Below, in pieces: positions 508 to 64,000 of a stretch of 64,000 nt of DNA (the first letter of the stretch is position 1; every line of letters begins with the position of its first letter). The DNA is from Moniliella sp. 'wahieum'. Lineage: Eukaryota. The DNA lies in NCBI GenBank assembly GCA_003971905.1, contig RSEE01000054.1, positions 186,001 through 250,000 on the forward strand, given 5' to 3'. The notes under the pieces were generated by a model. That model ran no database searches, was not told where the DNA came from, and was given only the letters and a program-made list of their open reading frames with translations. The translations under genes were made by a program, and so were the position numbers.

Positions 508-2159
508 TCCCAAATGGTGATGGCCAACAACAAGCCGACTAGCACTTCTTTCCCCTCTTTCCCCTTCTTTGAGGCACTCCACTCTAGAAGAAGAGCCCTT
601 TCAATTAACAGTTACCCCGCTTTCACCTCGGCGCCTGAGCCTATACGAATAACAGTGTGTACACAAAACCTCTTCCTTCTCGGACGCTGCCTCTTGCCCG
701 ACGATACAGCAAAGCACTACTTGCGCATGCCCCCCCCCTAAGCGTCCATTGCAGAGGTCATCTCATGGAGACACTCCGCCCCGGAACTCATGGCCAGACG
801 CAACGTTCGAGAGACCGTGGAAAAGTCCGATTGTGCTGACCGGCGTCATCGCGTTTTCTCTATATCTTCAAACTTCAAGCTTCATTCTTCATGGACGCGA
901 ACTTTAGTTAGAGAACTGAAAGCTGGCTCTGTAATGTATCGTGCATGCAATCCTTCCCAACAGTTCAATCACCTCACACATGCCTCTTCCGTTGTCTCGA
1001 ACGCTCCGATTGAAGAGTCCATCTGAGATCTCACGGCCATCTGTTTGTCTGCCGGTAAGACTGGCTTGCCCCGGGCAACACATGATGCAATGCATGGCAA
1101 GCCCTCAGGCCCCTCACCTCAGGCCTGAGCCTCAGGTTTCAGGCAGCTACCTCACCTTGCCAAACGCCGATCCGGCCAAGGCCAGGGGAAAGGGTATTTC
1201 GGCCATAGACGAGATCTCGAATCAAAAAGGCACAGCTGCGCTCTTCTCAGCGAGCACGTGGTCCACTGTGATGCTCTCATTAGGGGGAGTAAATAAAAAA
1301 GCCGTGGGCCATGTCTCTTCCTTTTACGTGAACTTTTCTGATCGGACCAAATACGAAGGCTACCGTCTGTACGGCGACGATATCGAGATTCAGGATAGGG
1401 GGGTCGCGCCGCGCAACGAGAGTAGGATGCAATTGATGGCGGCCGCGACCGCAGCCCCGACGGTGGTGGTAATTTAGTACAGTACGCACATAGGGGCAAA
1501 GCTGGCATAGCATGATCTCATGATCTCGGCATGGATTCGGTACGCGACGTGTGTATACGTACCCTGAAAAAATAGGAGACACGCCACGCACAGTCGCGGG
1601 TGTACCTAGTAAAAGCAAACAATCCGTCCTGCCGTGCGCGATCGCAGGGCAGGGACTACATAGAGTGCATCCGCCAATGCACCCGTGTCTTGCCCGCGCG
1701 GGCTCTTGTCTCTCGCTCTGCAAAGAGAGATGCCATAGTGAAACAATTTGTTTTCTTCAAGCTTCAAGCTTCATATATCCTATAGCTTCCTATACCCCAC
1801 ACGCCGTGAATCTTATTATCGTGGGTAGCTTATTATCCGACGGGTATATTATCGGATCTGAGGATCCCCGCCGGCGAGATGGCATACGCCATCCCGCCTA
1901 ATGTCCCCACTCTTCGGCGTCTCTGAGCACGAATGAGTTCTGAAATACGAGAAAGCCCCGTTGGCGGCGGGGGTTCTAGATCCTGAACTCTCCTCTCGAT
2001 CGCTACCGTCTCCATTTTACGATCGCGGGCGCGGCCGGATGTTTCGTATGTCGGTCGTCAGTCGGCTATGCACATTCTATGAACAGTTACGCATTACGCT
2101 CCTTTCTCGGATGGGCAGCATGCAGAACCTCCTGGAGGCGATCTGGATGGGTTGTTGTA

Positions 2160-2435
2160 TGTAACCGTTTTTTGTATTACATTTTGCCCCACAACACCAT
2201 CTCGACTTGGCACACGGCCTAATACCTCTTTACCATCTCACAAGAAACATGGAACAGGGGCAGATTGCATACCCGGCAATGTGTCAGTGTGTATATAACT
2301 TCTGTGCAGTTCGGCATGCCTTTCTCTCCTTTCTCCCTTTCTCTCTTGAGACCCGCTGCCCCTGTCTCCTCATCAAGCTGTTCGAATACCCTGTCCCGTA
2401 GTTCCCAGGGTTTATTGTGGCTCTCCATGGTCACA
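2160..2435 (+). mobile_element. possible solo LTR
   Basis: TGTAACC...GGTCACA termini, internal GTATATAA followed by a pyrimidine tract; flanks TTGTA/TAGGA are not a clean TSD. Confidence 0.3.
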
Positions 2436-60412: not shown

Positions 60413-62236
60413 ATGGCCGACGCCAGCATCACCGCCACCCGCCGCACCGTCGCCTTCGCCCCCCGGCGGGCACGAATACCCCACCACTGCCGCCGAGTAC
60501 ACGCCCCTGTCCCAGCTGGGCGAGGGCTCGTTTGGCAAGGTATATCTGATGCAGGTCCAGCGCACCGGAGAACTGGTTGCCGTCAAGAAGGTGCCCCTTG
60601 ACGACCAACAACTACGAGGGCCTGGAAGAAGCGCTGGGAGAAATTGCGCTGCTGATGCGCCACAACAGCCCCCCGCCTGGTCAAGATGCTGGCCTCCTTT
60701 GTCTCCCGCTCCAACCTATGGATCGTGATGGAATACTTGGCAGGCAACTCATGCCTTGCTCTGCTCAAGGCCCGTGTCTTTACTGAACCCGAAGTGGGCG
60801 CGGTGTGCAAGGCACTGGTGGAGGCTTGGACTATGTCCATGTCCAAGCCCAGCAGATCCACCGCGACCTCAAGGGCGCGAATGTGTTGCTCGCCGAGGAC
60901 GGGCGCGTGTGTCTGGGCGACTTTGGCGTCGGTGCCACAGCTCAACCACTACTTTAGTCACCGGCATAGGCACCCCGTATTGGATGGCACCCGAGGTGAT
61001 CACCGAACAAGGCTATGACGCCCGAGCCGATATCTGGTCTTTGGGCATCACCGCCATTGAGCCTCGCCAAGGGTGCCCCTCCGCATACTGACTTTCACCC
61101 CATGCAGATCATCCGCTCATTCCACGCGCAGCCCATCCCATCTTGAACAAGCCCGACGACGTAGCCCGGTTTTCTCCACTGTTTCGAGACTTGTCGCCTG
61201 CTGCTTAACCAAGAACCCGGCCAAACGTCCAACAGCGGCCCAGCTGCGAGACCACCCGTTCATCCAACAAGCGGCGCTGACACCGCCCTGCTGCCGCCTT
61301 GATTGCTGAGTATCGCACCTGGAAAAGGGAGCAGGATGGGGACCAGCCCTCTCCCGTTCCAGAGATGACCGCAGCCACCGTCACCTTCAGCCGTTCCTCC
61401 AATTGGTCCTTCTCGACCCACACCCACATTGAACCCCCATCCCCGGCGTCACCCACCCAGCCTCGTTTGCCCCCTGAGCTGGACGAAGACGATTCGTTGG
61501 ACGGGCGACAGTTCTTTTGAGGCGGACAAGGAGTTGAATCAGGCACTGGCCACCTTAAAGCTGGCCAACCCACCATGGAGGTGTAGAGGGTACCCTTCGT
61601 CCACCTCCCTTGTCCCGACCTGCTGCCGCTGCCGATGGCACAGTGCGTCGGACGCCGTGTTCCAATGCTACGCATGCCAAGCTCGATACCAGTGCGCGTG
61701 CCCCGGACCTGGCCGGCCAGGATTTGGTTCAAATGCTTCTTCCGGTGCTGCGCAAGCACCAGCAGGTCGCCACCGATGGCACCGATGGCCAAGCCAACCC
61801 CCAAGCTTCGGAGGCGCTCTCCACCATGGCCTCGGGCATGGAGGCCCTGGTCGAAGCCGATCCAGCGGGTGCATATGACCTGGTGGTGGATATGTTGCTA
61901 ACACTAAACGAGTATGTCCCCCCTTTCCCGCTTCCCTGGGAGTCGAGTGAGGCTGACGAGGCTGGATGGTGGCACAACAGGTCCGACCTGGCCCGGCGCG
62001 AAATCGCATCGGGTTCAGCCGAACGTTGAAACAACGCATCCAAACCACCAACGCCGGCGCCCGGCCCGCGCGTCACCGCCACTCTCACCTCCCGCACCTG
62101 AAACACCCTAGCGAGCACTCCCGCTCTTCCGAAGACAGCGAGACCGTCCCTGACCCCAGCCCCCCGAGGCTGAACGGCATCCAACGCAAGAACTGTTTTT
62201 GGACGGTGGCTCGATGGCTTGAAACGCTTGCTCTGA
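60413..62236 (+). CDS. STE20/GCK-family Ser/Thr kinase (Sid1/Don3-like)
   Basis: [54 protein letters not shown]-terminal RWLDGLK motif; intron ~61912-61980. Confidence 0.88.
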
Positions 62237-64000
62237 TCCTTCCCGCATTCTCCCCAGCCTCCTTTCACATGGCTTTCTCCTTCCTGCTTGCTATCTACTA
62301 CCCTGACTCTTTATCTGATTGTAAGCCCCTGCGCCTTTTCGCGCCCAACGGACGCTGCACGTTAACCCTGGCCCTGGCCAGCCTCACCCCGGCTGCTATA
62401 TATGGTGAGCGAAGCCAGATGTTCTCACTCCCCATTCGTCCTCTCTCATCTTATCATTCCGTACCTACATACCCCATCATCCTGTTCCAAATATACTCAT
62501 TTTGGGCAACTACTTTTGAATCTACCTTGGGGGCACGAGATGCAAACCTTTCTGCATGCCGTGCAGACCAGCAGTGTAGACTTCGTTCGTCCCACTCGAG
62601 AGCATTGCGCGTTGATCCTCTTCCATCGCATTGCCCCTCACCTCCCTCCCTCTTTCGCCCTATTATTGTCCTATACGCTCAATTCCTCTCGCGCGCCATG
62701 CGCCCCTTCCCTCCGTACAGTTCATGGGACCCCCCCCTGAGCCCGATCGCCCTGTTCCCGTGGCTCCTTGCGGGGCGGCCCTCTGCGGCGTCCGATCCAC
62801 TCGCTCCCCCATCACTGCCAGCTCTCTGGCGTATACCGGTTATTGAGGCAGAACAGCGGCGCATCCGTTTCTGCCGTGCAGACGGAAGTCGTGGTCATGA
62901 ATACCGTAAGCAGTCAGATGCAAACGGTGCCTGAGGCCTCTGATATTGGGCCCATGTCCCTTGTGACAACGTAGGAGGGCAACGCTCTGGAAAGGAATAA
63001 TCGGAACCAGACCGACCTCACATCCCCCACTTAACGTGTGTGTGAGTAGGTAGATATGCTCATCGCTGCAAGTGAAAGGCACAAAGGTGCGGTGTTACTC
63101 GTCCCACACACATTTTGTTAGGCACACAGGGGTGGGCAACGCGGTAAGGAACGGGCTGTTGAACGGTAACATGGTAATCCATTACCTGGTAGCCACCTAT
63201 TGTATCGATTGTACGAAAAGGTATCGATGAGGCAGGGAGGCCTGTGGACTGCCTTGTGGGCTTGCCCCATATGGTTGGTAGAGTGACTCGGAGCGCACTG
63301 AGGCCTCAGCCTGAGGACTGATAAGGTCTGTGGTTACCAAGGCCAGAGAGGTGCTGGGGCCGCTGAGTGTGGCGAGGGCGGTAAAAAACGGCAAGTGGTG
63401 GTGAGAGCGAGTAAGATCAACAGCGCGTGAGAAGAAGAGGGTGGCGGGAAGGAACGTGGAACACGTTTTAAACGCAGAGCACGTTGAGTACTGCATCATA
63501 CTAAGTACCAATGTTCCGTTGTAACCATATGGTCCTGCCAGGCCAAGCACATGTCTGCAGGCATTGTGCCTGTTGGCCTTTCGGCGAATTAAATGTTCTA
63601 TTGAAAACTACTGGTGCTGTAGGATAGCATCGAGACGCCTATGATGGTCTTCTCTTCGGCAAAAATGCGGAGGGATTGGGGCGTCTTGAACATGGAAATC
63701 ATCGAGATTGTCGATCCTGCATCATGCATCATGCAGAACACTGTGAACACGGTCCGCTATGTACTTTGACAGTGGTGTGGCAATAATGGTCCACGTATGG
63801 GGAGGCAGCTGTTGGCCGTTGGTACAGTACGTTTTCATTGCTTTGGGGGGGCGGGGGGGGGGGGCGCTGCAAAATGTATGCGGGGCACAAGCAAAACTAA
63901 ACCAAACAACCGACACTTGGCGTGGCGGTGGCCACGGGACCGAGCCTACACCGAGCACCGCTCAGGGTGCGTTAGCGTTCGGCCGTTTCGGGCCGCGGGG

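Follow-up and report, generated by a model that had tools for sequence, protein, structure and literature searches.

What process has left a large family of short, partly palindromic repeats between the genes of Moniliella sp. 'wahieum'? The question is raised by a stretch of 64,000 nucleotides (positions 186,001 to 250,000 of contig RSEE01000054.1, assembly GCA_003971905.1; hereafter the window), in which an initial annotation listed sites of the form TGA-pal4-TGA or TCA-pal4-TCA, pal4 being a self-complementary core of four nucleotides, and read most of them as tandem symmetric heptamers. These sites are a real, well-defined mutational scar, a seven-base insertion at a TNA trinucleotide in which five bases are copied forward and two are inverted. 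The scar is probably the footprint of an excised DNA transposon.

All 42 listed coordinates are exact 10-mers with the core given, and three further sites (2774, 34222 and 49562) bring the window total to 45. The expectation of about two sites held up: 100 dinucleotide shuffles of the window gave 1.77 ± 1.19 sites and never more than 6. Non-palindromic cores are only in mild excess in the window (49 versus 27.4 ± 4.6 in shuffles), and no comparable excess is found there for true palindromes (three TGA-pal4-TCA, two TCA-pal4-TGA) or when the palindromic spacer is 2, 6 or 8 nt long (0-3 each). In a sample of 664 kb, the window plus 60 pieces of 10 kb, there are 441 TGA/TCA sites versus 14.5 expected. 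All 16 palindromic cores are present in it, which extends the minimum of 13 counted at first and agrees with the view that a structure rather than one sequence is conserved around TNA. Two details of the first description have to be changed. The centre is T-N-A and not only T-S-A, TTA/TAA sites numbering 80 versus 1.7 expected in the same 664 kb, where for trimers other than TNA the observed/expected ratio never exceeds 4.3; five such TTA/TAA sites lie in the window (3805, 6596, 8326, 17957 and 34461). Nor are most sites two full symmetric heptamers: at least one flank matches the core in 36 of the 42 listed sites and both flanks in 10. The same holds in the 664 kb, with a match to at least one flank in 382 of 441 sites. 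The match typically covers exactly two bases on one side, and the unit is therefore xyTNA y'x' xyTNA, primes marking complementary bases.

Genome-wide figures are based on one exact motif count and on a sample of about 0.8-1.0 Mb. The sequence TGAAGCTTGA occurs 7,885 times in the assembly (69.5 Mb, 223 contigs) versus 37 times for its reversed control. Sites of the seven-base (+7) form number 500 in 774 kb, one long-inverted-repeat locus being omitted, and extrapolate to about 45,000 in the genome. Among 494 runs, 422 have two copies of TNA, 66 have three and 6 have more. No strong target consensus is found beyond TNA, the largest chi-square being 16 over 27 positions in 286 first-generation sites.

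The empty counterpart of the scar can be seen in a second copy of the window, a haplotype or homeologue found on contig C7 of the assembly, the window itself being part of contig C54. Positions 706347-884063 of C7 are colinear with 106001-290000 of C54 and differ from them by 2.9% substitutions; because two colinear haplotypes or subgenomes are present, the 69.5-Mb assembly is probably that of a hybrid or dikaryon of about half this size. The alignment has 173,836 columns, with 4,804 substitutions in 167,748 sites and 728 clean indels of 2-16 nt, whose lengths peak at 7 nt (43, versus 19 at 6 and 22 at 8). The exact rule xyTNApq -> xyTNA y'x' xyTNApq accounts for 21 of these 43, and four others are plain duplications. 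A tandem duplication is possible for 5 of the 21 and impossible for 16. Comparison of the haplotypes thus bears out the anticipated pairs of empty and filled alleles and contradicts the duplication of a pre-existing symmetric heptamer, the empty allele of these 16 being non-palindromic. A 7-bp duplication with inverted bases at TNA also fits 5 of the 22 indels of 8 nt and 2 of the 17 of 9 nt, so that 28 exact events stand against 4,804 substitutions, about one per 170. The empty alleles being ordinary sequence, insertion rather than deletion is the likely direction. In aligned DNA, 66 of 105 sites (23 of the 46 in the window) are common to both haplotype contigs and 39 are haplotype-specific. 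Using haplotype identity as a proxy for coding exons, alignment windows more than 98% identical hold 6.5% of 107 sites versus 20% of 6,016 TNA trimers.

The anatomy of the joint was read from junction densities per 10,000 centres in 774-784 kb, with ANT, GNC, CNG, TNG and GNA as control centres. The +7 form, with its even-centred P (palindromic) nucleotides, reaches 116 at TNA versus 1.7-4.6 at the controls. Where the whole 7-mer stands twice, the bases inserted are inverted copies of the end of that target-site duplication (TSD): a two-base inverted filler (the +9 form) is found at 19.6 versus 0.6-1.5 and a single inverted base (the +8 form) at 11.0 versus 1.1-3.3, while non-P fillers are level (8.6 versus 2.8-13.3). 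In the +8 and +9 forms, as in filled haplotype alleles, two copies of the target flank the joint, versus one copy in the empty allele. These two classes hold 56 and 51 sites versus the 500 of the +7 form, and a +11 form gives four strand hits at TNA versus 0-1 at the controls. The period of the duplication is 7 only: a 5-bp TSD form is not raised (9.3 versus 12.7-22.6) and a 9-bp one barely (1.6 versus 0-0.5). Pure 7-bp duplications at TNA are not enriched either (14 versus 9-19), which does not support the plain 7-nt staggered cut with fill-in put forward at first, and odd-centred junctions of the hAT type are at background level (7.8 versus 3.7-7.6 and 1.1 versus 0.2-1.1). A centre-flipped form makes a minor class (5.3 versus 0.4-1.2). 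At 14 sites (28 strand hits) two different cores surround one target, i.e. one event from each side. The +7 class needs no microhomology at p (96/349 versus a background of 0.28); the +8 class has one nucleotide of it, q being equal to y' in 27/49 versus a background of 0.23, for sites that are not fully independent.

We favour the explanation that the scars are probably footprints left by the excision of an element whose TSD is 7 bp long and reads nnTNAnn, and whose flanks would be closed as flush hairpins of the RAG/Transib type and opened 2 nt off the tip. Of the origins suggested by the initial annotation, the 7-bp TSD footprint and hairpin opening with P nucleotides fit best when combined, and staggered fill-in is not supported; its more general idea of a scar of a recurrent process is supported. 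The element, the enzymes and all steps between the empty and the filled allele we infer as follows. Every site would be the repaired donor site of a cut-and-paste DNA element, which would insert at a 7-bp target xyTNApq and duplicate it. At excision the transposase would seal both flanks as flush hairpins, in the RAG/Transib manner, and a host nuclease of the Artemis/SNM1 type would open them about 2 nt past the tip to leave 4-nt 3' overhangs, pqq'p' and y'x'xy. The joint would have a 4-nt palindrome because a flush hairpin is opened at +2. End joining that keeps one overhang and drops the other would produce xyTNA y'x' xyTNA pq, a net gain of seven, and retention of more of both ends would give the +8, +9 and +11 forms; these products are observed. 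A join through the A-T pair that is always present in the TNA centre would lead to the same +7 product and may explain its dominance. Arrays would arise when one TNA is struck again, from either side, and probably also by some slippage once a perfect 7-bp repeat exists. The enzymology has precedents: hAT, MULE, Transib and RAG produce hairpins on the flanking DNA (PMC5499845), those of RAG and Transib are described as opened by Artemis (PMC2175297; PMC4914130), and Artemis is reported to open flush hairpins mainly at +2 (PMC2175297).

A frameshifted gene with a metallo-beta-lactamase motif lies on the minus strand of the window (19784-23407) and matches SNM1A (E 4e-9) and Artemis (E 7e-8) at about 22550-22750. 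By this similarity the SNM1/Artemis-family gene is a possible candidate for the host hairpin-opening nuclease; its place in the window is probably a coincidence.

Several observations weigh against excision footprints. The product is more uniform than published footprints, the Ds element in Candida albicans being reported to leave 28 footprint types in 128 clones (PMC5873905). Among the 7-nt indels, 18 of 43 fit neither the exact rule nor a duplication, and insertion is no more than the likely polarity. Trimming of both overhangs should leave a TNA-TNA joint, which shows no enrichment (192 versus 105-340), although such a product would be hard to see, and an excess of q = x in the +8 (26/49) and +9 (17/29) classes is unexplained. 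Above all, the element itself was not encountered. There are no terminal inverted repeat (TIR) pairs flanked by a 7-bp duplication in 984 kb, no interspersed repeats visible by eye abutting nnTNAnn in the sample, and no 7-bp TNA duplication at any of the nine large haplotype gaps of the aligned region, which are long terminal repeat (LTR) elements with a 5-bp TSD, a solo LTR, a CACTA-like element or gaps with no TSD. The search for transposons flanked by matching TSDs, recommended by the initial annotation, thus returned none with a 7-bp nnTNAnn duplication in about 1 Mb of the 69.5 Mb. Genome-wide Pfam searches gave no match to hAT (PF05699, PF14372; controls also silent), Harbinger (PF13359, PF04827), MULE (PF10551) or RAG1 (PF12940; control also silent), and 0 candidates for KDZ (PF18758) and CxC1 (PF18802), the families that Kyakuja elements should carry (controls also silent). 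These are weak negatives, as most controls gave no signal, the assembly is frameshifted and the open reading frames (ORFs) of a recently mobile CACTA-like element also match no Pfam family. A low-copy element would suffice, since there are just 28 exact events per 4,804 substitutions.

That CACTA-like element, of 5.1 kb, has CAC..GTG inverted ends (window 47579-52672), is not in the other haplotype and has at least seven other copies at 98-99% identity. We take it to be CACTA/EnSpm-like from its ends and one motif; its ORFs give no Pfam family and no longer homologue. It was rejected as the source of the scars, having a 2-bp TSD in five of six other full-length copies and no TNA preference.

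The missing element would be accounted for if a host-encoded or domesticated transposase-like nuclease cut TNA sites with a 7-nt stagger, the ends then being filled in and turned into hairpins with no element inserted. Such a nuclease would suit the failure to find an element by structure or family, the very uniform product and the roughly 45,000 sites. It would however have to seal blunt ends into hairpins after fill-in, an activity for which we know of no enzyme, and its simplest product, the pure 7-bp duplication, is not enriched; the family-search negatives are moreover weak for the reason given above. We regard it as unlikely. Template switching needs neither element nor nuclease: a nascent xyTNA would fold back, pair T-A/A-T with the other strand, copy two bases back and re-prime five upstream. 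It yields the +7 product, keeps the polarity of the middle base and agrees with the centre-flipped minor class. This is an improbable origin, as it should act equally at ANT, GNC and CNG, all at background, and leaves unexplained the fixed 2-nt inversion and the +9 form, in which q = A in just 7/35.

The alternative offered with the first description, selected binding sites of a dimeric protein that would read TNA half-sites 7 bp apart, draws on the clustering of sites upstream of genes, seen by eye, and on a mild rise of non-palindromic TGA-N4-TGA (401 versus 234 in 664 kb). Selection for binding is very hard to reconcile with cores fixed by the flank for all 16 cores, with the 39 of 105 sites that the haplotypes do not have in common and with the location of sites in more diverged DNA; some arrays may have acquired a secondary use as binding sites. 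Ordinary slippage of pre-existing quasi-palindromic heptamers would deal with the five rule-following and four other 7-nt indels compatible with duplication and with the 72 of 494 runs that have three or more TNA. It is refuted as the origin of the first unit by the 16 of 21 indels that are not duplications, by the mixed-core sites and by the lack of enrichment of pure duplications at TNA; slippage at most extends arrays, and as a full explanation its chances are minimal. Many 1-bp indels and frameshifts in the assembly raise the suspicion of an artefact of error-prone long reads in sequencing or assembly. The scars are not a simple assembly artefact because 66 of 105 are present in two separately assembled haplotype contigs; they also avoid conserved DNA, and a weaker signal is found in independent metagenome contigs, which reduces this possibility to practically nil.

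Among the known systems closest to the scar are the P nucleotides of V(D)J coding joints and the RAG/Transib reactions. The likeness lies in the even-centred, 2-nt inverted copy of the end, as produced when a hairpin is opened at +2 and a 4-nt 3' overhang remains, in variable trimming and in a 1-nt microhomology in a minor class. Unlike in V(D)J/RAG-Transib joints, the same 7-mer stands here at both ends, as a target duplication, there are no enriched untemplated additions, one product dominates, the scars are inherited genome-wide and no RAG1 family match was obtained. Transib has a TSD of 5 bp, and the 5-bp form is at background here while the +9 form displays 7 bp. PIF/Harbinger elements have a TWA/TNA target preference and are alike in the TNA-centred target. 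They differ by a 3-bp TSD with usually precise excision, in contrast to a duplication that spans 7 bp, by the TNA-TNA joint, which is not enriched, and by the lack of a domain match; a 3-bp duplication cannot supply the second xy. Ac/Ds elements (hAT; plants, S. cerevisiae, C. albicans) resemble the present case in TSD copies joined via short P insertions and deletions, with short P arms reported in a fungus (PMC5873905). Their palindromes are described as having the complement of the element-adjacent base at their centre, hence odd-centred (PMC5873905), unlike here, where such junctions are not enriched and no hAT domain match was found. The MULE Muta1 also forms a hairpin on flanking DNA that is not opened by its transposase (PMC5499845); it differs by its 8-9-bp TSD and by a reported >90% of precise excision (PMC5499845), 9-bp forms being barely raised here and no MULE domain being matched.

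A length of seven recurs elsewhere. Abr1 of Agaricus has a 7-bp TSD, and heptamer arrays occur in Ustilago maydis. Abr1 is classified as hAT-type (PMC10051438). The basidiomycete lineages listed with a 7-bp TSD are Kyakuja and hAT7, the latter in rust fungi (PMC12730594), and both fit the scars in this length. Kyakuja are DNA transposons of the KDZ group, reported in Russulales, Boletales, Polyporales, Agaricales and Auriculariales, and in Laccaria they have CA..TG ends and no TIRs (PMC12730594), so that they would escape a TIR search. By analogy, a TIR-less Kyakuja is a candidate source of the scars, even though the KDZ and CxC1 searches were empty in the present genome. KDZ1 of Cryptococcus is given an 8-bp TSD (PMC11343200, PMC12810828).

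Footprints with P nucleotides are already known. Full-text searches of a collection with few subscription papers turned up no account of a TNA-centred +7 scar spread over a genome or of arrays that it would build, and the scar is unusual by its chemistry, density and uniformity. A bolder proposal, which we hold to be possible and still doubtful, is that an undescribed RAG-like, flush-hairpin transposase of basidiomycetes with a 7-bp nnTNAnn target, either of a TIR-less Kyakuja-like element beyond Pfam or a domesticated, element-free host copy, keeps rewriting promoter DNA, its scars seeding a class of 7-bp arrays in this genome and, less densely, across mushroom-forming fungi. If the footprint explanation is right, tens of thousands of inherited scars reveal how a transposase that is not in hand selects its target (nnTNAnn), how long a duplication it makes (7) and its flush-hairpin chemistry, and they provide a natural data set on how hairpins are opened and ends joined in a fungus. 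Transposon traffic that does not show up as repeats would then be a major source of promoter indels, at the rate estimated above, and a route by which short tandem repeats arise, and a sharp prediction would follow for the little-studied Kyakuja elements.

The extension to other fungi comes from a metagenome scan for a 24-base AGCT array, which gave 120 loci. Over all of these, palindromic cores other than AGCT are at chance level (40 versus 38.6), and those matched by a flank number 18 versus 4.6. Eighty loci with flanks were analysed (one duplicate dropped; 40 short loci omitted). When the loci were split by intron-like signals, signal and control came out alike (11 versus 7 hits). In a subset of 23 loci with low coding density and 44-58% GC (155 kb), a criterion picked after that split had failed, the 12-base form reaches 12.7 per 10,000 TNA with the selecting arrays masked (20 strand hits, 11 of them with other cores), versus 0-1.6 at six control centres, 7.1 at GNA and 2.9 in the other 56 loci. 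Several loci carry eukaryote-type genes and they would belong to mushroom-forming fungi. L145 and L184 have mixed-core runs, and in L162 (WNGR01000687.1) scars of three cores lie between tandem helicase genes (AAA_11). The signal, about tenfold weaker than in the present genome, suggests the same scar and is not proof of it.

The sites and empty targets of the window are the following.

873-884, plus strand: +7 scar, core AGCT; in the other haplotype the 7-mer is empty and non-palindromic.
1112-1118, plus strand: empty target 7-mer; +7 scar with core GGCC in the other haplotype.
1755-1773, plus strand: array of three TCA, core AGCT.
2774-3465, no strand assigned: two +7 scars, TGCA at 2774 and TTAA at 3456, the latter with one more unit, of +8, in the other haplotype.
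3916-3922, minus strand: empty target; +7 scar with core TGCA in the other haplotype.
4041-4069, plus strand: pair of +7 scars, core GATC, the one at 4058-4069 being empty in the other haplotype.
4634-6605, no strand assigned: cluster upstream of a gene starting near 6.9-7.1 kb, with sites 4634, 4822, 5249, 5602 (which has a +9 junction centred at 5594/5603), 5711 (unfilled in the other haplotype), 6040, 6140, 6184, 6411/6418, 6496 and 6596.
8326-9579, no strand assigned: sites 8326, 9016, 9570 and the pair 9196/9212, which a +9 junction links (centres 9204/9213); two empty targets, 9035-9041 and 9048-9054, are filled in the other haplotype, the first as +9 and the second as +7.
12349-12360, plus strand: +7 scar, CATG, between divergent genes.
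14663-14672, plus strand: listed 10-mer, TTAA, with no flank match; may be chance or decayed.
17957-18986, no strand assigned: scar of the TTA type at 17957, probably in an intron, another scar at 18810 and empty target at 18980-18986 (+7 in the other haplotype).
33679-34848, no strand assigned: one intergenic region with sites 33681, 34222, 34373, 34461 and 34501 and an empty target at 34842-34848 (+7 in the other haplotype).
40000-40018, plus strand: array of three TCA, core CGCG, between divergent genes.
44876-44968, plus strand: +7 scars at 44878 (not in the other haplotype) and 44957.
46417-47329, no strand assigned: sites 46419, 46477, 47042 and 47165, a +8 junction (centres 47138/47146) and, at 47311-47329, a run of mixed cores, ACGT followed by AGCT, whose counterpart in the other haplotype is longer.
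49421-52382, no strand assigned: four scars (49423, 49459, 49562 and 52371) within the multi-copy 5.1-kb CACTA-like element.
57955-63733, no strand assigned: arrays at 57957 (longer in the other haplotype) and 63722, with a +8 junction at 58962-58976 that is empty in the other haplotype.

The genes and introns of the window look fungal. Searching proteins with a dehydrogenase exon returned only matches of about 50% identity, to unplaced sequences. Placement by eye, covering the window apart from 22001-31000 and 41501-44000, both site-free, agrees with the earlier statement that sites lie outside coding exons: they are intergenic, mostly upstream of genes, with 17957 looking intronic and four sites in the 5.1-kb transposon. 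Period-7 arrays with non-palindromic or mixed cores at 8221-8243 and 8818-8853 may be decayed or slipped scars.

Other features of the two haplotypes were noted. Present in the other haplotype are a 5.3-kb LTR element with a 5-bp duplication (empty site at window 8382-8384) and a 221-bp insert between T runs (empty site at 4865-4868). Two segments of the window are not in the other haplotype and have no clear target duplication, one of 628 bp (16057-16684) and one of 2.2 kb (25724-27956) that starts with a T run and is perhaps a non-LTR copy. An old dispersed repeat of about 230 bp (377-607; more than 30 copies at 70-75% identity) is probably part of a solo LTR. Outside the window, locus L056 (C23, 100001-110000) holds an almost perfect inverted repeat, with at least 9 kb in total and its centre near 4640, which is an assembly artefact or a real palindrome. 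A 99-bp sequence at window 37056-37154, whose ends pair and which includes a T run, resembles a small non-coding RNA gene; it is repeated at another place on the contig, where it lies upstream of a paralogous prohibitin-like gene.

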